Positions 971-61,550 of a DNA stretch of 64,000 nucleotides are shown here, piece after piece. The notes below the pieces were generated by a model. It saw nothing but the letters and a program-made list of their open reading frames with translations. It made no database searches and was not told the origin of the DNA. Position numbers and translations under genes: made by a program. Location: positions 12,412 through 76,411 of the forward strand of contig CAZWKL010000005.1 in assembly GCA_964633875.1 (NCBI GenBank), written 5' to 3'. Origin of the DNA: an uncultured Pseudomonadales bacterium. Its GTDB lineage: Bacteria; Patescibacteriota; Microgenomatia; UBA1400; PJMF01. Each line of letters begins with the position of its first letter. The stretch's first letter is position 1.

Positions 971-2419
971 ATGCAACAAACCCAAAAAATTATCACACTG
1001 CTCCTGGCTACCTGCTTCCTGGCATTTGTAGTTTTGTCCTGGTGGTTACTGTTTCGTGATGAACGAGCGCTGGCAGGTATTGGGTTTTTTTATCCGCATT
1101 TGGCTGGCTGGCTTTTTGCCACTCGCACCTGGCTGCTTGACCGAAGCGTCAATTTGTTACCCACGCTGTTGTTTGCAGCAACCAGCCTGGTTGCTTTTGC
1201 TACTTACCTAGTCAGCTTAAGACTTAATTTTTCTAAGCGCACCAGTATTACGATGGCGTTAGTATTCCAAGTTGTGGCTTTTTTTTCATACCCGGTGTTG
1301 TCTACAGATATTTTTTCTTACATTTATTCGGATCGGGTACTTTTTGAGTACGGCCAAAACCCGTGGGAAGTTGCTCCCGGAAATTTTCCTGACGATTCTT
1401 TTGGCTTGATGGCAGATTGGACCGATCAAACCAGAGTTTATGGACTAGTCAATCAAATAATTTACTGGCCGGCTGCTGTGATTGGGGCGGGGCAGTTGCT
1501 CTCAACAGTGCTGAGTTATAAATTAGTAGCAGTGGTTTTTTATCTGGCCGCACTGGCTACTAGCTTAAAGTTAGTCGAAAAATGGCCAGAAAAACGCCAG
1601 GCTTTGCTGGTTCGGGCTATTTTTTGGAATCCTCTAATAGTACTGGAATTTGTGTCATCGGCCCATAACGATATTGCTATGATTTTTTTCCTATTATTGA
1701 GTTTGGCTTTTTGGAACAAAAAAGTGTGGTTTTTGGCGGGGATGCTGATAGCTTTGTCAGTGCAGGTCAAGCTTATTCCTGTTTTGGCCTTTGGTTTTTT
1801 CACGCTACAATTGCTTCAAGAGAAAAATCTCCGCGCGCTTACTCAATATACATTGAGTTTTCTGGCCGTTAATTTCCTGTCGTTTGCACTCATGGGTATT
1901 AGCCCGCTGAGTTTCCTTGAGCGCGTGCTTTACAACACCACTGTTTATTGGCAGTCTTTACCCGAATTAGTTGAGAGATTCTTGCCTGGAATTACAATGC
2001 CATTTGCCTTGATTTTTGTAGTAGTTGTAGCCGCGTTGGCGGCATTACAAATCAAAAATGGCTGGCCGCCGCTTAAAACTACCGCTCTGGCTTTAGCGCT
2101 GTATCTGGTTTTCTTTTCTGCCGCTAATTGGAATTGGTACATTCTTTGGCCATTTGTGCTGATTTTATTCTTGGAAGAGAATAGTGGACTCAAAAATTAC
2201 CTGTTATTGGCTACCGGCACTGCGCTGATGGCTTATCCGCTGCTTTGGTTTTCACACCGGTTTGGGTTTGGCCACCCGGCTTGGTCACTTGCAACCTACT
2301 TGCTTATCTTTGTCTTGCCCCTTATAGCAATCAAGATTAACAACGTTAAAAAACTGCGGCACACACCTTTACTCGGGGAGCATTCTCGATTATACTATGG
2401 CACATCATTTAACAAATAA
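971..2419 (+). CDS. polytopic integral membrane protein, GT-C-like glycosyltransferase candidate (DUF2029/GT87-like)
   Basis: Long ORF with more than 10 predicted hydrophobic helices. The six-frame ORF starts at 923 inside tRNA-Leu, so I moved the start to the first ATG after the tRNA (971, MQQTQKII...). Confidence 0.45.
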   Translation: MQQTQKIITLLLATCFLAFVVLSWWLLFRDERALAGIGFFYPHLAGWLFATRTWLLDRSVNLLPTLLFAATSLVAFATYLVSLRLNFSKRTSITMALVFQVVAFFSYPVLSTDIFSYIYSDRVLFEYGQNPWEVAPGNFPDDSFGLMADWTDQTRVYGLVNQIIYWPAAVIGAGQLLSTVLSYKLVAVVFYLAALATSLKLVEKWPEKRQALLVRAIFWNPLIVLEFVSSAHNDIAMIFFLLLSLAFWNKKVWFLAGMLIALSVQVKLIPVLAFGFFTLQLLQEKNLRALTQYTLSFLAVNFLSFALMGISPLSFLERVLYNTTVYWQSLPELVERFLPGITMPFALIFVVVVAALAALQIKNGWPPLKTTALALALYLVFFSAANWNWYILWPFVLILFLEENSGLKNYLLLATGTALMAYPLLWFSHRFGFGHPAWSLATYLLIFVLPLIAIKINNVKKLRHTPLLGEHSRLYYGTSFNK

Positions 2420-3011: not shown

Positions 3012-3060
3012 GCCAAGCTAGCCAAGGTGGTTCCGCCTACGGCGGATCTGAAAAACATGA
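3012..3060 (+). pseudogene. degenerate 5' fragment copy of tRNA-Phe carrying a TCCGCC-TAC-GGCGGA hairpin ('decoy')
   Basis: The first 20 nt (GCCAAGCTAGCCAAGGTGGT) are identical to the tRNA-Phe 5' end at 3093. The hairpin TCCGCCTACGGCGGA (3032-3046) then replaces the D-stem/anticodon-stem segment. The 14 nt TCTGAAAAACATGA is shared with the anticodon loop region. No T-arm or acceptor 3' strand follows. Confidence 0.7.
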
Positions 3061-3092
3061 AACGCTAGCGATTAACAAACGATTTGATACAA

Positions 3093-3168
3093 GCCAAGCT
3101 AGCCAAGGTGGTCACGGCGCATGTCTGAAAAACATGAGATTGAGGTTCGACTCCTCAGCTTGGCACCA
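3093..3168 (+). tRNA. tRNA-Phe(GAA) with encoded CCA
   Basis: Acceptor GCCAAGC/GCTTGGC plus ACCA; anticodon stem CATGT/ACATG with loop CTGAAAA (anticodon GAA); T-arm TGAGG-TTCGACT-CCTCA. Confidence 0.8.
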
Positions 3169-9216: not shown

Positions 9217-10317
9217 ATGCCAAATCAATCCATCCTCGACTCCCGCGAAGAAATCGCTCAGCTGGACCAATCCAACATGCTCGGCTCTATTGAGGCCCTC
9301 GGCAAGCAAATTGAGCATGCTTGGAAAGAGGTGCAGACTGTTGAGTTTAAGCCTCAAGCAGAAATCCGCAACGTGGTGGTAGCCGGCATGGGCGGCTCTG
9401 GATTGGGCGGGGATGTCATCAAACACTTGTTCAAAGATGAAATTACAGTGCCGTTTGAAATAGTTCACTCTTACACCCTACCGGCTTATGTTAACGAAAA
9501 TACACTGGTGTTGCTTTCCAGTTACTCAGGCACTACCGAGGAAGTGCTGGCTTGCGCCGAGGCAGCGCACCAAAAAAACGCCCAAATAATGATTATTGCT
9601 GCCGGGGGAGAACTGGCGAAACATGCCCAAGAACATCAGCATCCTGCCTACATCATCGACCCCATCCACAATCCTTCCCAACAGCCACGAATGGCCATTG
9701 GCTATGCTGTTTTTGGCACCATCGGTCTGCTGGCCAAGGCAGGCATCATCACCATCAACGACCAAATGGTGAACGAAGTCGTGGCCACCATTGATACCGT
9801 GATTGCCGATAACAATGTCGAAGTTGTTGGTGAAAGTAACCCCGCCAAAGCTCTGGCTTTCAACATGGTTGGCAGACGAGGGGTTATTGTCGCGGCTGAG
9901 TTTCTTGAAGGCGCCGCGCACGTGGCTGCCAATCAACATAACGAAAATGCCAAAGCCTTCGTGGATTACAAAATCATTCCCGAGCTCAACCATCACCTCA
10001 TGGAAGGCTTGCAGTTTCCGCGCTCAAATCCAACCGACCACTTCTTCCTGATGATTCAATCTCAGCTTTACAACCCCAAAAATGGCTTGAGGATGAGGCT
10101 GACTCAGCAAGTGATTGAGAACAACGAAATTGATACTCTGAGCATCCTACTGCGCGCCTCCACCAAAATCAGCCAGGTTTTTGAAATGATTACCCTGTTT
10201 GCTTTTGCCGGTTTTTATCTTTCTATGTTAGAAGGCATTGATCCCAGCCCGATTCCTTTTGTGGATTACTTCAAAGACGAGCTGAAGAAACAAAGCCAAG
10301 ACTACCAACTCACATAA
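9217..10317 (+). CDS. bifunctional phosphoglucose/phosphomannose isomerase (SIS domain)
   Basis: SIS-domain nucleotide-binding pattern VVVAGMGGSGLGGDVIKHL. Size and layout fit archaeal-type PGI/PMI. Confidence 0.65.
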   Translation: MPNQSILDSREEIAQLDQSNMLGSIEALGKQIEHAWKEVQTVEFKPQAEIRNVVVAGMGGSGLGGDVIKHLFKDEITVPFEIVHSYTLPAYVNENTLVLLSSYSGTTEEVLACAEAAHQKNAQIMIIAAGGELAKHAQEHQHPAYIIDPIHNPSQQPRMAIGYAVFGTIGLLAKAGIITINDQMVNEVVATIDTVIADNNVEVVGESNPAKALAFNMVGRRGVIVAAEFLEGAAHVAANQHNENAKAFVDYKIIPELNHHLMEGLQFPRSNPTDHFFLMIQSQLYNPKNGLRMRLTQQVIENNEIDTLSILLRASTKISQVFEMITLFAFAGFYLSMLEGIDPSPIPFVDYFKDELKKQSQDYQLT

Positions 10318-32974: not shown

Positions 32975-33377
32975 ATAAATCCTCATAGAGATCAAGTCTC
33001 CGCCAACTGGCGGACGAAACTAGTCTCCCCAAACAATTTAAGTTGTGCATTAGCCAAGATGATAGAGAGAATCAAACCTCTCTGTTTTTTGCTGATTCAA
33101 TTGGGAAAAGAGGATTGGCGGTAATTTAAGACCGCCCAGCTATTTAAAAAGTGAATATCTGACATAAACATGGTGGTAGAACCGCGACACAAAAGTGTGA
33201 GAAGCGGAACACTATCATGTTTTTTATGACAGTGATCCGTCATATTTGAACTTTGAGTTCAGTAAAGACTGCGAGTAATTCGCAGCACAAATACGTATAA
33301 CGTAAACACAATGAGCACAAATTCAAACCTCAATTAAGTCAATAGCTTTTTAGACTTCGGTTTAAAAAGTTAAAGAA

Positions 33378-33440
33378 ATTCTTTATGAGAGTTTGATCCG
33401 CCGCAGGCGGATGAACGCTGGCCAGCTTTTGCCGGTCCAA
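33378..33440 (+). other. degenerate duplicate of the 16S 5' end carrying a TCCGCC-GCA-GGCGGA hairpin (leader 'decoy')
   Basis: TTTATGAGAGTTTGATCC and GGATGAACGCTGG are identical to 16S positions 1 to about 40 at 33466 onward. The native CTGGCTCAGG is replaced by GCCGCAGGCGG, which keeps a hairpin. Confidence 0.7.
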
Positions 33441-33473
33441 CGTAACAAACAATCATGAAGACAGCTTTTTTAT

Positions 33474-34505: not shown

Positions 34506-35393
34506 ACAAAAAACTCGCGACCCGTACTAGAAATGGTACGAGAAAAATCTGGCTCATATCGGTGAAGTCCGGTTATCGCAAACTGTTTGCAAGGAAATTC
34601 TTGTAAACTTGCCATAATGGATAATACCGAGGGAAGTCGGGTAATTACGAGTGTCTTTAGAGCTCGGAAAAATCTTGAGCTCTGTTTAACTAATCGTCAA
34701 ATGTCCATAGTTCTAGGTTCAATTCTCGGTGACGCTTATGTCCATCCAAAAGGAAAAATCTGCTTTGAACACTCAGAGCAGCAAAAAAATTACCTTTTAT
34801 GGAAGTATGTAGAACTAAAGAATTTAGCTTATCCTCAAGTAGCAAAAGTTACTCGTAAGGATAGGCGGAACAACAAACAGACAATTAGTTGGCGGTTCTT
34901 CTTGAGGCAATATTTTCGCCCCCTGAGAGCTGCTTTCTATTTCAAAGGCAAAAAAGTAGTACCAGATGATCTTAATCTTTGGTTTACGCCCTTGCTTTTG
35001 TCGGTCTGGTACATGGATGACGGATACCTTGATCAAGGAAAATACCCAGTTTTTATGACTGAGTGCTTTGATAACAAAAATATAAGTCTTCTAACAGAAA
35101 TGTTAAGAGAAATATTTAAACTGCAAAGCATTATTACTTCCAAGAACAGGATCCGTATAGTTAGTAAAAGCAGAACACAATTCTTTTCACTGATAGAGCC
35201 GCATATTACTAAAGACCTCAAATATAAATTACCCTGACCCCGTAACGACTGGAAGCCGCTTATCAGGCGGTGGAAGATCCGCCCCAGGCGGATAACACGC
35301 CAGCCCCTATTTTCTGTAATTGATTTCTGTAATTGATTATAGAAAAAGGGTGAAGGTATAGTCTGGCATTTAGAGTAATCTAGATGGTTTTGG
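34506..35393 (+). mobile_element. 16S intron 1 (about 0.9 kb, probably group I) with homing endonuclease ORF
   Basis: The sequence between 16S exon GTCGTGA and the resumption GACGTCTATTTAAGTATAGTAACGAGCGCAACCC. Boundaries are approximate to within a few nt. Confidence 0.7.
34587..35237 (+). CDS. LAGLIDADG homing endonuclease (double-motif) encoded in 16S intron 1
   Basis: Motifs LGSILGDAYV and VWYMDDGYL. The start may be internal (MSIVLGSILGDAY). Confidence 0.8.
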   Translation: MQGNSCKLAIMDNTEGSRVITSVFRARKNLELCLTNRQMSIVLGSILGDAYVHPKGKICFEHSEQQKNYLLWKYVELKNLAYPQVAKVTRKDRRNNKQTISWRFFLRQYFRPLRAAFYFKGKKVVPDDLNLWFTPLLLSVWYMDDGYLDQGKYPVFMTECFDNKNISLLTEMLREIFKLQSIITSKNRIRIVSKSRTQFFSLIEPHITKDLKYKLP

Positions 35394-35700
35394 AGACGTC
35401 TATTTAAGTATAGTAACGAGCGCAACCCTTGCCGTATGTTATACGTGTCATGCGGGACTGCCTGTGCATTGCACAGGAGGAAGGAGAGGACGACGTCAAG
35501 TCAGCATGTCCCTTACATCCGGGGCTACACACATCCTACAATGGGGTAGACAACAGGTATAGCAACAGCGCGAGCTAGAGCCAATCCTCTAAACTACTCC
35601 TCAGTTCGGATTGGAGGCTGCAATTCGCCTCCATGAAGCCGGAATCGGTAGTAATCGCAAATCAGCAGGTTGCGGTGAATACGTTCTCGCTCCTTGTACA

Positions 35701-36606
35701 AATAAATATGCGCCTTCCGCGCATACTATCCAGTTAGTTTAAATCTAACGTGTCATAAGCAAGTAGACACAAGCAAAATTGCAAGCCTATCCGGGTAACC
35801 GGCAGGCTGAAGGGCAAAAGTAGCGGTGGTCAGCTTGGAGTTTAAACGGCATAGTGCTGTGAGGATCCTGCGTACAACTGGAGAACTCACTTGCTAACAC
35901 AAACAGCACTCTGTATGTGGGCTCGAGATGATCGCGAATGGATAGTATGTGAACGAAGGGAGATCCTGTTTGCTCTCTATTTGATGCAAAGAAAATAGAG
36001 TATAGTGAAGGTAACAACACTAAATTAGTAAGCAGGAAGTCTGCAGAGGTCATAGTATCAGCGCCTTGGCGTTGAGAAGGACCAAACTTAGTGTCATGAA
36101 ATTGTCTCCTGAATATGTGTGCGGGTTTGTTGATGGCGAAGGTTGCTTCACTATCACCATTGCCAAGCACAAACAGAAAAAACTCGGCATCGATGCCCGT
36201 CTTCATTTTGAGATTGAAGTGCGAGCAGATGATATTGAAATTCTGAGAAGAATTCAAGAAACGCTGGAGTGTGGCAGAATATATCATCTCAATTATGAGA
36301 GGTATGGCTGGCATCCCCATGCAGAATTCAAGGTTTCTTCTTTAAAGGACATTAGAGAAAAAGTAATACCATTCTTTCAAAGGTATCCACTTCAGGCAAA
36401 GAAAAAGGTTGCTTTTGACCAATTCGTTAAAGCAGCAAAGATTTTTGCCGAAAAGCGACACCTAACCTCAGAAGGTATTAAAGAATTAAAACAAATCAGG
36501 AAACAAATGAATATATATAGACACCAAGGGTTCGCCACGGTGCGGGAAAACCGCGCGCCGGGCGGCGAGAGACACATGAATCAGTGATGACATGATGATC
36601 TCAGAA
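35701..36606 (+). mobile_element. 16S intron 2 (about 0.9 kb) with homing endonuclease ORF
   Basis: Insertion between CCTTGTACA and CACTGCCCGTCAAGCC. Boundaries are approximate. Confidence 0.7.
36096..36587 (+). CDS. LAGLIDADG homing endonuclease (single-motif) encoded in 16S intron 2
   Basis: CGFVDGEGCFTITI is the LAGLIDADG motif. The ORF track extends the start to 36066. Confidence 0.8.
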   Translation: MKLSPEYVCGFVDGEGCFTITIAKHKQKKLGIDARLHFEIEVRADDIEILRRIQETLECGRIYHLNYERYGWHPHAEFKVSSLKDIREKVIPFFQRYPLQAKKKVAFDQFVKAAKIFAEKRHLTSEGIKELKQIRKQMNIYRHQGFATVRENRAPGGERHMNQ

Positions 36607-37122
36607 CACTGCCCGTCAAGCCAGCAAAGTCAGCAACGCCCGAAGCGGGTGACCGTAATTATCTTTTGATGAAGCGGCCCTTCTACGGCGAGGTTGGCGA
36701 TGAGGACTAAGTCGTAACAAGGTATCCGTACTGGAAGGTGCGGATGGATCACCTCCTTTCTAAGGAGATGGGTAGGAGCAATCACGACCTCCTGTTTCCC
36801 GCGCTTAGTAATAAGCGCAAAACAAATTAAAAAAATCCCGTGGCTATCATACCCGGGCCGTGTCCGCCGGAAGCGGATCGGCTCTACCACCATGTTTGTG
36901 TCAGAATTCACTTAAACATTTTCCAAACTTTTGTTAATTTCAGCAAGAATTGGTCAAGCCAGTGAGCTAGTTTAATGATATCTTCTATATCAAAACATAT
37001 CTTTATACATCATTTTTCCTTGATACATCAACCAGAAAAATTTCAGCCGCAATTTAGCAGTCTTTTTTCTTGTCTGCTAATTACTACTTCACACCATCTC
37101 ATAATCTAGTTACAATAACTGA

Positions 37123-37581
37123 GTGCCAAGTAAAATCAAAAACTACACCCTAGTGTTTCTGTTTAATGAGGATCTTTCTAAGGTAGTGCTCATCAAGAAA
37201 ACTCGGCCTAAGTGGCAGAAAAATAAGTTCAATGGCGTTGGTGGAAAAATTGAGAATGGAGAAAAAACTGTTGAAGCTGCAGCTCGGGAAATAAAGGAGG
37301 AAACAGGTTATGTCATTAATAATAAGTCAAAATTAATAAAAATTGCCAGCATGGAATCGAATGAGTGGAAAGTACATATCTTTGCCGCTCAAATATATGA
37401 AGATGTAAAAATGCACGAAGCCACAGAAGAAGGAGAGGTTCAGTGGCACCAAACAAGCAATCTGCCCACTAACTGTATAGATAACTTGCCTTGGTTAATT
37501 CCATTATGCCAAAATAAACTAAAAGAAAATTACATTGATAGATGCCATATTTTTTACAAAAACGACACCGAGCATCAGTAA
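37123..37581 (+). CDS. NUDIX hydrolase
   Basis: NUDIX box GGKIENGEKTVEAAAREIKEETG. GTG start. Confidence 0.8.
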   Translation: MPSKIKNYTLVFLFNEDLSKVVLIKKTRPKWQKNKFNGVGGKIENGEKTVEAAAREIKEETGYVINNKSKLIKIASMESNEWKVHIFAAQIYEDVKMHEATEEGEVQWHQTSNLPTNCIDNLPWLIPLCQNKLKENYIDRCHIFYKNDTEHQ

Positions 37582-37601
37582 ATGCCTAAAGGAGGACGCT
37601 T

Positions 37602-40166
37602 ATGGATATGAACAAACTCACCACTAAATCAGCCGAAGCCCTGCAAGGGGCGATGCAACTGGCCGGAGAGCTGTCTCATCCGGAAATTTTGCCGCTCCAC
37701 CTGGCAGTTGTTTTGATCAATCAGCCGGCAGGGATTGTGCCGGCACTTTTGCAAAAACTGGATCAGGACCCGCAAAAAATTTCCAGCGCTCTCCAAGAAG
37801 CACTGAGCCAAAAGCCCACCGTGTCCGGGCCCACCCAGGCCTATCTCTCTTCAGCTTTAAAAACAGTCTTTGATGTTGCCGAGAAAGAAGCCGGACAAAT
37901 GAAAGACGAGTTTGTCAGCACCGAGCACTTGTTTTTAGGCTTGCTGGAACAAAAAGAAGTTGGCGAAATTTTCGCTGTCTCAACCAAAGAAGTCAAAAGC
38001 GCGCTTAAAAACCTGCGAGGCAAGCAAAAAGTCACCGACCGTGATCCTGAAAACAAGTTTCAGGCTTTAGAAAAATATACTCTGGACTTCACCCAGTTGG
38101 CTGCTGACGGCAAGATCGATCCCGTTATCGGCAGGGATCAAGAAATCCGCCGGATTATGCAAATTCTGTCCCGCCGCACCAAAAATAATCCAGTGCTGGT
38201 AGGGGAGCCGGGAGTTGGTAAAACCGCTATCGTGGAAGGCTTAGCTAAGAAAATTATTGAAAATGATGTCCCAGACCAACTGCGGAATAAGAAATTGCTT
38301 TCGCTGGATATGGGTAGCTTGGTGGCTGGAACCAAGTATAGAGGAGAATTTGAGGACAGATTGAAAGCAGTAATTCAGGAAATCGAAGCAGCGGAGGGAC
38401 AAATCATTCTCTTTATTGATGAGCTGCACACCATTGTCGGCGCCGGAGCGGCGGAAGGCTCTACCGATGCCGGCAATCTGCTTAAGCCGGCTTTAGCTCG
38501 TGGCAGTCTACGTACAATTGGCGCCACCACTTTGAAAGAATATCGCCAGTATGTGGAAAAAGACGCTGCCCTGGAACGGCGCTTCCAGCCAGTGATGGTT
38601 AACGAACCAAGTGTGAGCGACACCATTTCCATTCTTAGAGGCATTAAAGAAAAGTACGAAACTCACCACGGGGTGAGGATTAGGGACAACGCTTTGGTGG
38701 CCGCGGCCAAGCTTTCCGACCGCTATCTGCCTGACAGATTTCTGCCTGACAAAGCCATCGACCTTATGGACGAAGCCGCCGCGGCCATCAAAATTGAACT
38801 CGACAGCAAGCCTACCGAGCTTGATCAACTAGAAAGACACCTCCGGCAGCTGGAAATTGAAAAGCAAGCGCTCAAAAAAGAAACCGATGAGCAATCCAAA
38901 TCCAGGCTGAACAAGATTGAAAAAGAGCTTTCCGATCTGGGAGAGCAGTACTCGCAGCTGGAACTGCAGTGGCAAAATGAAAAGAAAGTCATTGATGAAA
39001 TCAAGTCCTTAAATCAAAAATTGGATGAACTCAGAGAGGCGGCAGCCCAAGCCGAGCGCAATCTTGACCTGCAAAAGGCAGCAGAAATAAATTATGGCGA
39101 AATTCCCAGTGCCAAAAAGCGCCTCGACGAACTCCAGCAAGAATTGGAAGAAGTGCAGCAACATCAGCAAATTCTCAAAGAAGAGGTGACGGAGGAGGAT
39201 ATAGCCAGGGTGATTGCCCGCTGGACGGGTATTCCCACCGAAAAAATGCTCATGGAGGAAAGTGAAAAACTCGCCAAGATGGAAGAGGAGATCGGTGTGC
39301 GCTTGATTGGACAACGCCAGGCGGTGGCGGCCGTCGCCAACGCGGTCCGGCGTAGCCGGGCAGGGATTAAGGAGGAGGGCCGGCCGATTGGTTCGTTTAT
39401 GTTTCTTGGCCCCACCGGGGTTGGTAAAACCGAATTGGCCAAGGCTTTAGCGGAGTTTCTTTTCAACGATGAAGACGCCATTATCCGTATTGATATGAGT
39501 GAGTACATGGAGCGCCACGCGGTTGCCAGACTAATCGGCGCTCCTCCCGGTTACATCGGCTACGAAGAGGGCGGCCAGCTCACCGAAGCGGTGCGGCGCC
39601 GGCCATACAGCGTAGTTCTTTTTGATGAAATTGAAAAAGCCCACCCAGAAGTTTTCAACACTCTGCTGCAAATCCTTGACGAAGGCAGACTGACAGACAG
39701 CAAAGGCAGAACTGTTGATTTTAAGAATACTGTTATCATCATGACTTCCAACCTCGGCAGCGACAAAATTCAAGCGCTCCAGGGTGATAAGCCAGCAGTA
39801 GAGGAGGCGGTCCACCAAGTTCTCAGCCAAAAATTCCGCCCGGAATTCCTCAACCGCCTCGATGAGATTATTATTTTTGACCCACTTTCAGAGGCAGAAA
39901 TCGGCCAGATCGTTAAACTGCAAATCGCTGAGGTGCAAAAAAGGCTGGCGGACAAAAATATTACTATCGAAATATCAGCAGAAGCCGCCGCCGAGTTGGC
40001 TAAACAAGGTTTCGATCCGGTTTTCGGCGCCAGACCGCTCAAGCGCCTGATTCAAAATACCATTCTGGACCAGCTTTCCCTGCTGATTATTGAAGGTAAA
40101 ATCAAAGAAGGCGGAAAAGTCAAAGCGGTGGTGAAAAACGGCCGGATTGTCTTAAATAAGGCGTGA
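37602..40166 (+). CDS. clpB: ATP-dependent chaperone ClpB
   Basis: Two AAA+ modules ([16 protein letters not shown]), a coiled-coil middle domain, the ClpB N-domain, 854 aa. Confidence 0.95.
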
Positions 40167-40228
40167 TATAATTCAATTCGCGCCAATTTTTGCGCCTGCT
40201 TATGTTACAATAACCCTCTCAGGAAGAT

Positions 40229-40302
40229 GGGTGACTAGCTCAGTTGGTTAGAGCGCAGTCCTGATAAGACTGAGGTCAATGGTTCGAATCCATTGTCACC
40301 CA
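40229..40302 (+). tRNA. tRNA-Ile(GAT)
   Basis: GGGTGACTAGCTCAGTTGGTTAGAGCGCAGTCCTGATAAGACTGAGGTCAATGGTTCGAATCCATTGTCACCCA. Anticodon loop CTGATAA gives anticodon GAT. Confidence 0.85.
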
Positions 40303-40378
40303 CATTTTCTTTTCCCATAGGTTCGCTGTTCCTATTCACCCTTGCGCTTTAGCAGACAAACATTTAGAATGCTAATTT

Positions 40379-54728: not shown

Positions 54729-54741
54729 GTGAAGGATTTTG

Positions 54742-55090
54742 ATACAGAGTTCATAAGCCGGATTCTGTACTAGGTAATGATTTATCTAATGCCTGAAGCT
54801 TTATCATCGGCCGCTATAAAGCGGCTGGGAATAGATCCAATGCGATGAAACTCGTCAGTTGCAGCGGGGAGGATTGCCGCCCATTTGGCCTGAGCCAAAC
54901 CAGCACCCGATAGCTTGGTCGTTTCAACTGCCGCTACGCAGCTCGTCTCTGTGGCTCTGACTGTATCCGCCCGGGGGCGGACCTTTGGCTTAAACCTCAC
55001 GAAGAGGCCACCGCCAAACACCCTCTATTCTGCTGTCCGGACTTTCCTCCCATTGCGTTGAGCGCAACAGGCCATTACCGAACTCTGTGG
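54742..55090 (-). ncRNA. rnpB: RNase P RNA (bacterial type A)
   Basis: Minus-strand RNA contains P4 GGGAGGAAAGUCCGGAC (plus strand ctgtccggactttcctccc), the 3' consensus ACAGAAUCCGGCUUAU, and P1 pairing ACAGAGUUC with GAACUCUGU. Ends approximate to within about 5 nt. Confidence 0.8.
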
Positions 55091-61005: not shown

Positions 61006-61057
61006 TGTTTGGTAGACCAGCGCCTCAATTTCTTGCTATAATGCACTCCTCAAATAA

Positions 61058-61131
61058 GAACTCGTAGCTCAGTTGGTTAGTCCGCCTACGGCGGAGACAT
61101 CGAAGAGGGCGGGAGGTTGAAAATTAAATAA
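61058..61131 (+). pseudogene. degenerate 5' fragment copy of tRNA-Val(GAC) carrying a TCCGCC-TAC-GGCGGA hairpin ('decoy')
   Basis: 23 nt GAACTCGTAGCTCAGTTGGTTAG are identical to the tRNA-Val 5' end at 61132. The hairpin TCCGCCTACGGCGGA (61081-61095) follows, then the shared GACATCGAAGAGG, then divergence. An extended -10 TGcTATAAT (61034-61042) lies upstream. Confidence 0.7.
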
Positions 61132-61205
61132 GAACTCGTAGCTCAGTTGGTTAGAGCGCTTCGTTGACATCGAAGAGGTCAGAGGTTCGAGTCCTCTCGA
61201 GTTCA
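61132..61205 (+). tRNA. tRNA-Val(GAC)
   Basis: GAACTCGTAGCTCAGTTGGTTAGAGCGCTTCGTTGACATCGAAGAGGTCAGAGGTTCGAGTCCTCTCGAGTTCA. Anticodon loop TTGACAT gives GAC. Confidence 0.85.
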
Positions 61206-61550
61206 CCCTAGATCCGATTTTTCAACTGGTTCCAAACAAGTGACTACAAACTCGTGTCTGGTTCCCCTATCTTTAAAAGGCAGCTCTGCGTACTCAATTG
61301 TAAATGACTTTGCTTCTCTAAATTGCTCAAGTTTTTCCTTCAAACGACTCATCTGCCTATTAAAAAGCCAGCCCCCAGTAGCAACCACGCAGTTTAATTG
61401 GTCGCCTGGCTTCATCGCCTTACACAGCTCCAACAACCTAGGAAAGTTTATAGGCTCAGAGAATGTTAACTCAGCATTTTGCACTGGACCAATATCTTTA
61501 TTATGTTCATGCATTTTTCTCCTTCCTATTAAATTACCAAAATATATCAT
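61203..61550 (-). CDS. hypothetical protein (115 aa)
   Basis: ORF between tRNA-Val and infC with no confident motif. The start may be internal (MHEHNKD). Confidence 0.3.
   Translation of the reverse strand: MIYFGNLIGRRKMHEHNKDIGPVQNAELTFSEPINFPRLLELCKAMKPGDQLNCVVATGGWLFNRQMSRLKEKLEQFREAKSFTIEYAELPFKDRGTRHEFVVTCLEPVEKSDLG

Follow-up and report, generated by a model that had tools for sequence, protein, structure and literature searches.

Hairpin-patched partial copies of stable-RNA genes in a Patescibacteria chromosome as plausible scars of nuclease-associated duplication

The DNA between the promoter and the gene of tRNA-Val(GAC) in the window (the whole 64-kb stretch analysed here) carries what we somewhat favour reading as a recent, non-functional pseudo-copy of the 5' two-thirds of that gene (61058-61131). 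On this joint reading, the "decoy" of a preliminary description would be the scar of a nuclease-associated duplication and hairpin patching, co-transcribed with the tRNA and then discarded. Two further duplications of the same design, at tRNA-Phe and at the 16S rRNA gene, lie in the same 64 kb, and the patch falls in the same part of the molecule each time. The link to a nuclease is strong for Phe, and may be extended to Val by analogy.

Results

Anatomy of the tRNA-Val pseudo-copy

The Val unit consists of the following features.

61013-61042, plus strand: promoter of the tRNA-Val(GAC) unit (TAGACC, 18 nt, TG-n-TATAAT)
61043-61057, plus strand: ancestral 5' leader, 15 nt
61058-61080, plus strand: arm 1, tRNA-Val positions 1-23 (23/23 identical, blastn E = 5.6e-8)
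61081-61095, plus strand: hairpin patch TCCGCC-TAC-GGCGGA, TCCGCCTACGGCGGA
61096-61108, plus strand: arm 2, GACATCGAAGAGG, tRNA linear positions 35-47 (13/13 identical)
61109-61131, plus strand: divergent spacer GCGGGAGGTTGAAAATTAAATAA, 23 nt, read from the sequence
61132-61207, plus strand: intact tRNA-Val(GAC) (ARAGORN; Rfam 72.9 bits)

The promoter joins an extended -10 (TGcTATAAT, 61034-61042) to a -35-like TAGACC at 61013, with 10 of 12 positions matching; neither strand has another promoter-like site between 60900 and 61300. Since neither a terminator nor a second promoter lies between it and the tRNA, the primary transcript very probably starts with the pseudo-copy, as had been proposed.

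Arm 1 covers the acceptor 5' strand, the D stem 5' strand and the D loop. Its identity to the tRNA copy reaches 6 nt back into the leader, whose final 6 nt (AAATAA) recur at 61126-61131. The 15-nt patch, a hairpin in all predicted folds, stands in place of 11 tRNA nucleotides, AGCGCTTCGTT, which comprise the D stem 3' strand, nucleotide 26, the anticodon stem 5' strand and the first two loop bases. Arm 2 supplies the anticodon GAC, the remaining loop, the anticodon stem 3' strand and AGG. The spacer opens with a degenerate match to the T stem and T loop (GAGGTT) and closes with the second leader copy; nothing similar to it was found in any fetched locus. The preliminary description of this sequence was accurate for the promoter, the 23-nt arm, the 15-mer, the 13-nt arm, the divergence and the intact tRNA downstream, except that the hairpin end and the tRNA start are separated by 36 nt and not 37.

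Membership of the tRNA family (RF00005) means a four-arm cloverleaf scoring at least the family threshold of 29 bits, and the pseudo-copy falls outside it, being devoid of the D stem 3' strand, the anticodon stem 5' strand, the 3' half of the T arm and the acceptor 3' strand. ARAGORN does not call it as a tRNA, Rfam gives it no match at the gathering threshold, and 61030-61131 has no Rfam match even at E <= 10. The intact gene is 100% identical to tRNA-Val in the relatives L007, L008, L021 and L028.

An assembly artefact, chimeric or arising from a mis-joined repeat, is a practically negligible explanation of the pseudo-copy, even though the source is a metagenome assembly and Logan contigs break around the locus. 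Pseudo-copy, hairpin and tRNA are identical in three further assemblies from different assemblers (contigs of JGI 3300015214, ENA ERZ27247376 and Logan SRR6484323, found with the upstream DUF5660 gene as anchor). Two more Logan contigs end exactly at ...GGTTAGT, the k-mer-graph branch point expected from the Val repeat, and same-species Logan contigs terminate within the tRNAs. These breakpoints are exactly those that a genuine 29-nt repeat predicts, and analogous structures are present in other genomes.

The Val locus in relatives

In eight relatives whose gene order is the same, the promoter's orthologue abuts the real tRNA, which makes 74 nt of the window a lineage-specific insertion. Promoter and leader directly abut tRNA-Val, with no pseudo-copy, in L028, L031, L006-L008 and L165-L170. 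For example, TTGTTATAATGCATTCCTCAAGATAC aligns immediately 5' of GAACTCG in L028, and the leader of L165 reaches the same point with ...CTAAATAA. Therefore, the pseudo-copy sits at the ancestral position of the gene. The preliminary description had named non-conservation in close relatives as one half of what would speak against a decoy, and the comparison found the Val element non-conserved. The closest relative at infC (L005) is uninformative for this locus, as synteny is lost upstream of infC.

Other kinds of duplication also occur among the relatives. In L014 a Val pseudo-copy occurs with another hairpin and without an ORF, and plain partial tRNA duplications, free of hairpins, are present in L018 and L040. 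A remnant GIY-YIG C-terminus was considered for the Val spacer (...AAA TTA AAT AAG AAC TCG TAG, compared with L058) and dropped, the same leader being present in pseudo-copy-free relatives.

Pseudo-copies at tRNA-Phe and 16S rRNA

Two more loci of the window show the same design, the second of them newly found.

3012-3092, plus strand: tRNA-Phe pseudo-copy (arm 1 3012-3031, hairpin 3032-3046, arm 2 3047-3060, spacer 3061-3092), upstream of the intact tRNA-Phe (3093-3168)
33382-33468, plus strand: 16S rRNA 5'-end pseudo-copy, upstream of the genuine 16S 5' end (33469 onward)

The Val and Phe hairpins are identical, as noted before: TCCGCCTACGGCGGA stands at 61081-61095 and at 3032-3046. In the 16S pseudo-copy, arm 1 is TTTATGAGAGTTTGATCC (33382-33399), arm 2 extends up to 33422 and the spacer has 46 nt (33423-33468). 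The patch TCCGCC-GCA-GGCGGA (33397-33411) replaces TCCTGGCTCAGGA and, as at Val, is located in the upstream copy. Compared with the sister species (L158), from which it is absent, the 16S pseudo-copy is an exact 85-nt insertion.

The spacers of Phe and 16S both contain TAACAAAC. A role of this motif in boxA/boxB-type antitermination was set aside. The motif is missing from the rrn leader of the sister species and thus came with the insertion. No minus-strand promoter-like site lies near any of the three pseudo-copies, and an antisense bipartite guide RNA was likewise set aside.

A dispersed family of hairpins

Six of the 68 perfect 6-bp hairpins in the window have the stem TCCGCC/GGCGGA, and all six belong to genes or precursors of stable RNAs. 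Within two mismatches, the 15-mer TCCGCCTACGGCGGA was observed 5 times against 0.05 expected from shuffling. The stem is conserved and the loops vary. Besides the three patches, the family includes the following members.

32999-33014, plus strand: rrn leader hairpin TCCGCC-AACT-GGCGGA, with the rrn promoter about 20 nt upstream
35278-35292, plus strand: hairpin TCCGCC-CCA-GGCGGA within 16S intervening sequence 1, close to its 3' end
54966-54981, minus strand: helix P9 of RNase P RNA, stem TCCGCC/GGCGGA

The rrn leader hairpin is ancestral, with the counterpart TTCGCC-ACA-GGCGAA in the sister species, and is conserved through compensatory change. Intervening sequence 1 (34506-35392) is absent from the sister species. 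The RNase P RNA gene occupies 54738-55090 on the minus strand, and its P9 is native, evolving through point mutations and compensatory substitutions, with a loop unlike those of the patches. A derivation of the hairpin from P9 was considered and dropped.

Mobility of the hairpins is indicated by an orthologous intron stem-loop, in which the sister species (L158) has the exact 15-mer and the window has TCAGCGCCTTGGCGTTGA, with flanks 100% identical over more than 60 nt on either side. Patched copies, too, are present in some relatives and absent from others. In their dispersed copies far above chance, and in insertion or replacement polymorphism between close relatives, the hairpins resemble small mobile palindromic repeats. 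Tandem pairs and multi-copy families of hairpins occur, among the matches listed, in metagenome loci without a nearby tRNA or GIY-YIG gene; these are qualitative examples, as the 15-mer scan is biased to the TAC loop and includes chance matches in high-GC coding DNA. The patch sequence itself differs by lineage (L014, L163).

The preliminary description had taken the repeated 15-mer as a sign of either a sequence-specific function or a common origin, as opposed to independent slippage. A common origin, or a common mechanism, is upheld by the six window hairpins with the same stem and by the same patch junctions in the sister species; the functional alternative fared less well, as discussed below.

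Association with GIY-YIG nuclease genes

At the tRNA-Phe locus of the sister species (L160), the intact tRNA is followed by a 79-aa GIY-YIG ORF (Pfam PF01541, E = 5e-16) and then by a second copy carrying TCCGCC-ACA-GGCGGA as its patch. Its junctions coincide exactly with those in the window's Phe pseudo-copy, and the copies are arranged differently in the two species. Both the ORF and the patched Phe copy are missing from the outgroup L161. At the tRNA-Ile locus of L163 the order is two patched 5' copies, intact tRNA, GIY-YIG ORF and patched 3' copy, and in all three copies the entire anticodon arm is exchanged for TCCCGC-NNN-GCGGGA. In a small sample of metagenome loci that were chosen for the hairpin, two unrelated ones (L073, Asn; L100, Ser) have a TCCGCC-type patch in a partial 5' copy and an adjoining GIY-YIG ORF. 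In every case a hairpin takes the place of an internal segment of the old fragment, and the adjoining intact gene is wild-type in sequence.

Each of the six GIY-YIG ORFs seen lies directly against a tRNA, and the last triplet of three of them is T8-A9-G10 of the tRNA itself. The loci retrieved through protein homology contain 48 tRNAs, a small sample; patched copies accompany both of the tRNAs that abut a GIY-YIG ORF and 3 of the 46 others (Fisher p = 0.009). The ORFs encode 79-87 aa, as minimal UPF0213/Slx1-like domains with no DNA-binding domain. Their presence is sporadic among close relatives at conserved loci, as in a SegB-like cassette: at Phe in the sister species only, and at Ile in L163 only. 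A tblastn search found neither a GIY-YIG ORF nor a recognisable relic at Val, at 16S or across the 93-kb contig. A phage origin was considered as well and rejected, the GIY-YIG proteins having no relatives in viral contigs.

Predicted folding of the precursors

In silico, the real tRNA-Val reaches a cloverleaf probability of 0.041 in the precursor with the actual patch, versus 0.0003 with an unpatched partial copy, and 0 of 400 shuffled or random 15-mer fillers attain 0.041. For Phe, 16-31% of random fillers equal the hairpin in the same kind of prediction, and plain deletion performs better. A folding benefit of the hairpin is thus clear in the models for Val and not for Phe. When precursors with and without the pseudo-copy are compared, its presence lowers the predicted probability from 0.086 to 0.041 at Val and from 0.37 to 0.003 at Phe.

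Discussion

The reading that we lean towards, a nuclease-associated scar, would involve several steps. A nuclease would break the tRNA gene and repair would restore an intact copy; the 5' part of tRNA-Val would have been duplicated, with the displaced old copy staying on the ancestral promoter. The D-stem/anticodon-stem segment of the old copy would have been swapped for a 15-nt GC hairpin of the dispersed family, so that the retained fragment has its target or its homology interrupted. From the Val, Phe and 16S loci of the window genome the nuclease ORF would since have disappeared, so that only scars remain there. We infer that, on transcription, the scar forms an 83-nt leader, which RNase P removes by cutting at the real 5' end, and that the self-contained hairpin may prevent mispairing between fragment and tRNA and interrupt the direct repeat.

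Some observations fit this scenario poorly, among them the missing ORF at Val and 16S and a predicted folding benefit of the hairpin that does not extend to Phe. The second Val copy has the ancestral-type leader AAATAA, which suits duplication in tandem at the locus better than import of a cassette of ORF plus tRNA. Simple immunity by target disruption is an incomplete explanation, since the intact copies retain the wild-type sequence that the patch removes. Nor does the nuclease model explain why native hairpins, in P9 and in the rrn leader, have the shared stem where no duplication exists.

Among the alternatives, a spontaneous tandem duplication of the gene's 5' part, by slippage or template switching in highly transcribed stable-RNA genes, survives best, although we consider it rather unlikely. 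The duplicate would then have been invaded independently by a tiny mobile or gene-converting palindromic repeat, and the GIY-YIG genes would be bystanders that favour tRNA neighbourhoods. Besides the leader motif kept on the second Val copy, the hairpin-free duplications in L018 and L040 and the ORF-free Val pseudo-copy of L014 with its other hairpin agree with such events, as does the resemblance of the hairpins to a dispersed repeat, with six copies, the intron swap and the tandem and multi-copy metagenome families. It accounts less readily for three duplications of one design within 64 kb with the patch in the same part each time, or for identical patch junctions in two species with differing copy arrangement. 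Patched copies at both GIY-YIG-adjacent tRNAs of the unbiased set also argue against bystanders.

The idea that the element serves the host, as a functional promoter-proximal decoy or leader, now seems improbable. Fragment and hairpin would regulate maturation of the downstream tRNA through some factor that binds them, for instance RNase P, an enzyme of processing or modification, an anticodon nuclease or a protein of antitermination. However, the element is missing at the orthologous Val locus in all relatives examined, its 16S counterpart is not even in the sister species, and the same architecture is found with GIY-YIG nuclease genes elsewhere, which speaks for the scar of a selfish element. 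Promoter proximity, part of the original claim, is not a property of the class, as the Phe instance lies away from a promoter and begins 4 nt after tRNA-Val(TAC). A decoy would agree with arms that are 100% identical to the tRNA beside a diverged remainder. The stem shared by P9 and the compensatorily conserved rrn leader hairpin makes a common RNA-binding partner conceivable, and in silico the hairpin, as an "inert" filler, is exceptionally compatible with folding of the real tRNA-Val. Yet the hairpin sequence varies between lineages (L014, L163), and the predicted effect on tRNA folding, compared with no pseudo-copy, is neutral to harmful. A known RNA family was also discarded as an identity, with no Rfam match for the pseudo-copy or for the hairpin-bearing metagenome elements.

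A partial tRNA copy beside an intact one, with sporadic distribution, is reminiscent of the classic att scars of integrase-mediated insertion. In three metagenome loci (L051, L122 and L127) a conserved element that contains the same hairpin directly follows the CCA end of different tRNAs, beside a large serine recombinase gene. Nevertheless, a relic of a phage or island that was mostly deleted later is very improbable here. Att duplications have identity to the tRNA 3' end, an integrase or island between the copies, and no internal hairpin patch. At Val, the 5' part is duplicated, with identity confined to that part, a hairpin inside and a spacer of 23 nt; the copies in the window are only 23-46 nt apart, the gene lists show no integrase nearby, and the 16S 5' end has the same design.

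Returning to the nuclease-associated scar, its likeness to known systems is partial. T4 SegB, a GIY-YIG homing endonuclease, is encoded in a tRNA gene cluster and recognises a site in tRNA gene DNA (PMC2330249). SegB-type elements also resemble ours in being sporadic among close relatives, and they spread with co-conversion of flanking tRNA sequence. The ORFs here differ in being minimal UPF0213/Slx1-like proteins with no DNA-binding domain, in residing in Patescibacteria chromosomes, and in being flanked by partial hairpin-patched copies of the target, with the window loci lacking the ORF. We know of no description of such copies for Seg enzymes. Two points count against the nuclease reading. 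To our knowledge, no cleavage activity or specificity is on record for UPF0213-type proteins, a widespread bacterial family with no established function. A survey from 2006 inferred mainly vertical descent for this family (PMC1564403).

The hairpins recall REP and REPIN sequences, which are dispersed short hairpins with a conserved stem and a within-genome mobility inferred from comparison (PMC3116915). They differ in being only 15-16 nt long, in their confinement to stable-RNA genes and pseudo-copies, and in replacing sequence rather than merely inserting into it. No RAYT/HUH-type transposase was noticed in the gene lists checked.

In organelles, double-hairpin elements, yeast GC clusters and repetitive hairpin-forming elements are mobile, GC-rich and short, and land in intergenic regions and RNA genes. 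Invasion by organellar homing endonucleases leaves displaced partial gene copies beside endonuclease ORFs. The mitochondrial hairpin elements differ from ours in being organellar and longer (about 30-60 nt), in targeting mostly protein genes, and in having no fixed patch in place of a defined internal segment. GC-rich hairpin elements of fungal and sponge mitochondria are a subject of PMC4478555 and PMC2800124, and PMC7315562 touches on host-gene fragment exchange through intron mobility.

As a tentative generalisation, we propose that minimal UPF0213/Slx1-like nucleases of Patescibacteria and some other uncultivated bacteria may drive an undescribed mobile system at stable-RNA genes. The intact gene would be rebuilt, and the displaced fragment plugged with a lineage-specific GC hairpin that could provide immunity, break the repeat or act as a structure-specific substrate. 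The hairpin might spread further by short-patch conversion into native stem-loops, namely intron hairpins and possibly P9 and the rrn leader, and the Val, Phe and 16S pseudo-copies would be solo scars.

Pseudo-copies of this kind can mislead annotation and break assemblies at tRNAs. Shortly before the 16S gene, the 16S pseudo-copy adds a further near-match to the region of the universal 27F primer, with the hairpin in place of the primer's 3' end. If our reading is true, it would account for odd tRNA- and rRNA-like fragments in genomes of the candidate phyla radiation (CPR), and would caution against calling such fragments regulatory decoys. The uncharacterised UPF0213/YhbQ-like GIY-YIG family would gain a testable role, as mobile and possibly structure-specific nucleases. 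Selfish DNA would then invade the most conserved genes even in very small genomes, and a tiny hairpin plug would neutralise the damage.

Hairpin-patched copy at the tRNA-Val(GAC) locus

The preliminary description gave an accurate sequence account of the tRNA-Val(GAC) locus; promoter, arms, hairpin and intact tRNA are all present. Here, we use the term pseudo-copy for a partial copy of a stable-RNA gene, the middle of which is replaced by a GC hairpin, the patch. The locus is composed of:

61013-61042, plus strand: sigma-70-type promoter with an extended -10, upstream of the pseudo-copy
15 nt between promoter and pseudo-copy: leader
61058-61080: arm 1, 23 nt equal to tRNA-Val(GAC) positions 1-23 (E = 5.6e-8)
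61081-61095: hairpin patch, TCCGCCTACGGCGGA
61096-61108: arm 2, 13 nt matching tRNA linear positions 35-47 without mismatch
23 nt: spacer, with the leader repeated in its last 6 nt
61132-61207: intact tRNA-Val(GAC) (ARAGORN, Rfam)

The 11 tRNA nucleotides that the hairpin replaces make up the D stem's 3' strand, nucleotide 26, the anticodon stem's 5' strand and two loop residues. ARAGORN does not call the pseudo-copy as a tRNA, and Rfam gives no match even at E <= 10. No other sequence between 60900 and 61300 resembles a promoter on either strand, and the promoter is not followed by any terminator-like site. A conserved 103-115-aa ORF without Pfam match (61203-61550, minus strand) converges on the tRNA-Val 3' end and is not a GIY-YIG protein. 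A small ORF, also without Pfam match, is placed likewise in the comparison locus L028.

An assembly artefact is unlikely, as the sequence across pseudo-copy, hairpin and tRNA is the same in contigs of three further assemblies (JGI 3300015214, ENA ERZ27247376 and Logan SRR6484323). Two more Logan contigs stop exactly at the branch point of the repeat.

The window belongs to a metagenome contig of 93.6 kb from a Patescibacteria bacterium, whose relatives carry the labels Paceibacterota, Pacebacteria or Woesebacteria. Many of them keep the order trigger factor, DUF5660, tRNA-Val and infC. In the relatives' loci L028, L031, L006-L008 and L165-L170, the real tRNA-Val comes immediately after promoter and leader (junction of TTGTTATAATGCATTCCTCAAGATAC with GAACTCG in L028 versus TTGCTATAATGCACTCCTCAAATAA with GAACTCG in the window). 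Therefore, the pseudo-copy sits where the gene itself ancestrally stood, and the 74 nt inserted in the window are lineage-specific. A distant relative has its own, independent tRNA-Val(GAC) pseudo-copy (L014, Woesebacteria DAOQVB010000059.1, about 1611-1700, minus strand), with a different 9-bp hairpin in the D loop, CCAGCTGCT-CGTG-AGCAGCTGG; its close relatives L013 and L015 have none. In L014, a second promoter-like site, GATATAAT, lies ahead of the real tRNA. The preliminary description had proposed a functional decoy, to be judged by its conservation in relatives. With relatives lacking the pseudo-copy, this comparison gives a conserved function no support, and a decoy serving the host is improbable.

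A GIY-YIG gene at the tRNA-Phe locus of the sister species

The tRNA-Phe locus (L160) of the sister species, MAG GCA_964515115.1, is our key result. This genome is the closest relative available (amino-acid identity of 93% for ClpB and 97% for IF-3; 16S nucleotide identity of 97.6%). Its locus consists of tRNA-Val(TAC), 32 nt, the intact tRNA-Phe, an ORF right after the tRNA, and a patched copy. The copy, GCTAGCCAAGGTGGT-TCCGCCACAGGCGGA-TCTGAAAAACATGAGATTGAGGTTCGACTCCTCAGCTTGGCAC, corresponds to tRNA-Phe positions 6-20, the hairpin and positions 31-76, and the patch joins it at exactly the positions seen in the window's Phe pseudo-copy.

GCA_964515115.1 contig 42, 1153-846, minus strand: GIY-YIG ORF, 79 aa (Pfam PF01541, E = 5e-16)

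The ORF is of the UPF0213/prokaryotic Slx1-like type (PDB 1zg2, E = 2e-12) and stops on a TAG within the patched copy. Both ORF and patched copy are absent from the outgroup locus L161 (Val-AGA-Phe-terminator). In the window, the Phe pseudo-copy begins 4 nt past tRNA-Val(TAC), so promoter proximity is incidental.

A third pseudo-copy at the 16S rRNA gene

The 16S 5' end also has a pseudo-copy, at 33382-33468, which the preliminary description overlooked. Its sequence is TTTATGAGAGTTTGATCC-GCCGCAGGC-GGATGAACGCTGGC, as against TTTATGAGAGTTTGATCC-TGGCTCA-GGATGAACGCTGGC at the real 5' end, which lies 87 nt downstream. The pseudo-copy spans a near-match to the universal 27F primer region, with the native TCCTGGCTCAGGA swapped for TCCGCCGCAGGCGGA. 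The syntenic rrn locus of the sister (L158) has one 16S 5' end, relative to which the window carries an exact 85-nt insertion. As at Val, the upstream copy bears the patch. About 250 nt of the rrn leader are about 99% identical to the sister, versus 86% for the flanking genes. The leader hairpin is ancestral; at this position the sister shows a compensatory change (TTCGCC-ACA-GGCGAA).

The 16S rRNA gene of the window is broken by insertions with endonuclease genes:

34506-35392: intervening sequence 1, endonuclease-like ORF
about 35690-36600: intervening sequence 2, endonuclease-like ORF; Rfam group-II D1-D4 family match at 36000-36082

The first is missing from the otherwise 97.6% identical 16S of the sister, and at its start a degenerate version of the 16S segment that lies downstream seems to be present. 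A long leader-trailer complementarity (33160-33185 with 36878-36903, ACATGGTGGTAGAACC / GGCTCTACCACCATGT) encloses the pseudo-copy; this pairing would form a 16S processing stem. The 16S is followed by a NUDIX gene, clpB and tRNA-Ile(GAT) (40229-40303), without a 23S rRNA gene in 36760-40303, and the rRNA genes are thus unlinked.

A hairpin family in stable-RNA genes

The window holds 68 perfect 6-bp hairpins whose loops are 3-5 nt long. Six of them have the stem TCCGCC/GGCGGA, and all six sit in stable-RNA genes or precursors:

3032: tRNA-Phe pseudo-copy
32999: rrn leader
33397: 16S 5'-end pseudo-copy
35278: 3' part of a 16S intervening sequence
54966, minus strand: RNase P RNA helix P9
61081: tRNA-Val pseudo-copy

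The RNase P RNA gene (54738-55090, minus strand) scores 94.8 bits in Rfam, just below the gathering score of 100. Its P9 loop is CCCG, not a GNRA loop, and relatives have TTTGCC-TTCG-GGCAGA or other sequences in this helix. In a group-II-like intron common to window and sister, the sister has the exact 15-mer TCCGCCTACGGCGGA versus TCAGCGCCTTGGCGTTGA in the window, the flanks being 100% identical for >60 nt on each side. This difference is a hairpin-for-hairpin swap. The stem shared with the native P9 and rrn leader hairpins could reflect short-patch conversion, a common binding partner or, partly, chance.

Patched copies and GIY-YIG genes in other genomes

At the tRNA-Ile locus between clpB and lon in a relative (L163/L164), two 5' pseudo-copies are followed by a promoter-like site (TAGATATAAT in L163), the intact tRNA, a GIY-YIG ORF and a 3' pseudo-copy:

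L163, 12642-13214: tRNA-Ile array with three patched pseudo-copies

The entire anticodon arm is replaced by TCCCGC-NNN-GCGGGA in all three pseudo-copies, and the ORF starts directly after the tRNA and stops on the D-loop TAG of the next copy. In window and sister, the tRNA-Ile at this locus is plain. A metagenome tRNA-Ser locus (L100) has the exact design of the window (tRNA positions of about 7-21, two hairpins, then positions of about 36-47, 25 nt of spacer and the intact tRNA), with a GIY-YIG ORF downstream. At a metagenome tRNA-Asn locus (L073), a 5' copy with multiple patches precedes a GIY-YIG ORF and the intact tRNA.

Each of the six GIY-YIG ORFs observed lies directly against a tRNA, and three (L160, L073 and L058) stop on its T8-A9-G10 triplet. 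Among 48 tRNAs in loci fetched by protein homology, the hairpin not being a selection criterion, patched copies occurred at 2/2 GIY-YIG-adjacent tRNAs versus 3/46 others (one-sided Fisher p = 0.009, on small numbers). Among the matches listed in a metagenome scan for the 15-mer, TCCGCC/CCCGCC-type hairpins were often tandem and near tRNAs, lying <=200 nt from one in 10 of 120 loci versus a rough expectation of ~2.

Other arrangements were also seen. Same-family hairpins followed by copies of tRNA 3' parts lie downstream of tRNAs in L141 (2623-2800; a tandem pair of 90-nt units, each of which holds two hairpins plus 18 nt copied from the tRNA 3' end), L058 (7272-7320) and L076 (about 9830-9870). 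In the metagenome loci L051, L091, L122 and L127, a conserved ~150-nt element with the 15-mer directly follows the CCA end of different tRNAs (Leu, Ala). It resembles the terminus of an integrated element, and in L051, L122 and L127 adjoins a large serine recombinase gene. Plain tandem duplications of tRNA 3' end and downstream flank, the copy unpatched, occur in L018 (1691-1708) and L040 (1323-1343; the 15-mer selected by the scan lies further downstream), so partial tRNA copies also arise by other routes in such genomes.

Origin of the patched copies

The best-supported explanation is that a nuclease-associated process acting on stable-RNA genes leaves the patched fragments behind as by-products. 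Repair of a break within the gene or close by would rebuild an intact copy, and the displaced fragment would stay, with an internal segment swapped for a short, self-contained GC hairpin. The hairpin breaks up a direct repeat otherwise prone to recombination, takes out strands able to mispair with the real RNA, and may destroy the nuclease target. Against this reading, the intact copies retain the sequence removed by the patch, and no ORF or relic was found at the Val or 16S loci. With the ORFs gone in the window, the Val, Phe and 16S fragments would be solo scars. Transcription from the ancestral promoter probably includes the Val fragment, within an 83-nt leader, and the RNase P cut at the real 5' end would remove it.

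In thermodynamic estimates, the tRNA-Val cloverleaf probability in the precursor is 0.086 without pseudo-copy, 0.041 in the actual sequence and 0.0003 with an unpatched partial copy, and none of 400 shuffled or random 15-mers matched the effect of the real hairpin. This modelling supports a neutralising role at Val. The effect is weaker for tRNA-Phe (0.37, 0.0031 and 8.6e-5, respectively), where 16-31% of random fillers equal the real hairpin.

The main rival, in which the gene part duplicated spontaneously and a mini-hairpin repeat then invaded independently, is possible but doubtful; the second Val copy retains the ancestral leader motif, in keeping with local duplication. A relic of an integrase att site is unlikely.

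A precedent for the nuclease-associated process is the phage T4 GIY-YIG enzyme SegB, with its recognition site in tRNA genes (PMC2330249). In both cases GIY-YIG genes lie at tRNA genes; the window loci are without the ORF. A point against the process is a 2006 survey that saw mostly vertical descent for the UPF0213 family (PMC1564403). Small mobile hairpins, free-standing homing endonucleases and partial duplications of target genes have all been described before (PMC2330249, PMC3116915, PMC4478555, PMC2800124), and recent work on tRNA genes in Patescibacteria deals with group I introns (10.1101/2025.07.03.662931). In the literature, we found no description of hairpin-patched partial tRNA or 16S copies tied to minimal GIY-YIG genes in Patescibacteria. 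The tRNA-Val 'decoy' is a degenerate member of this pattern.
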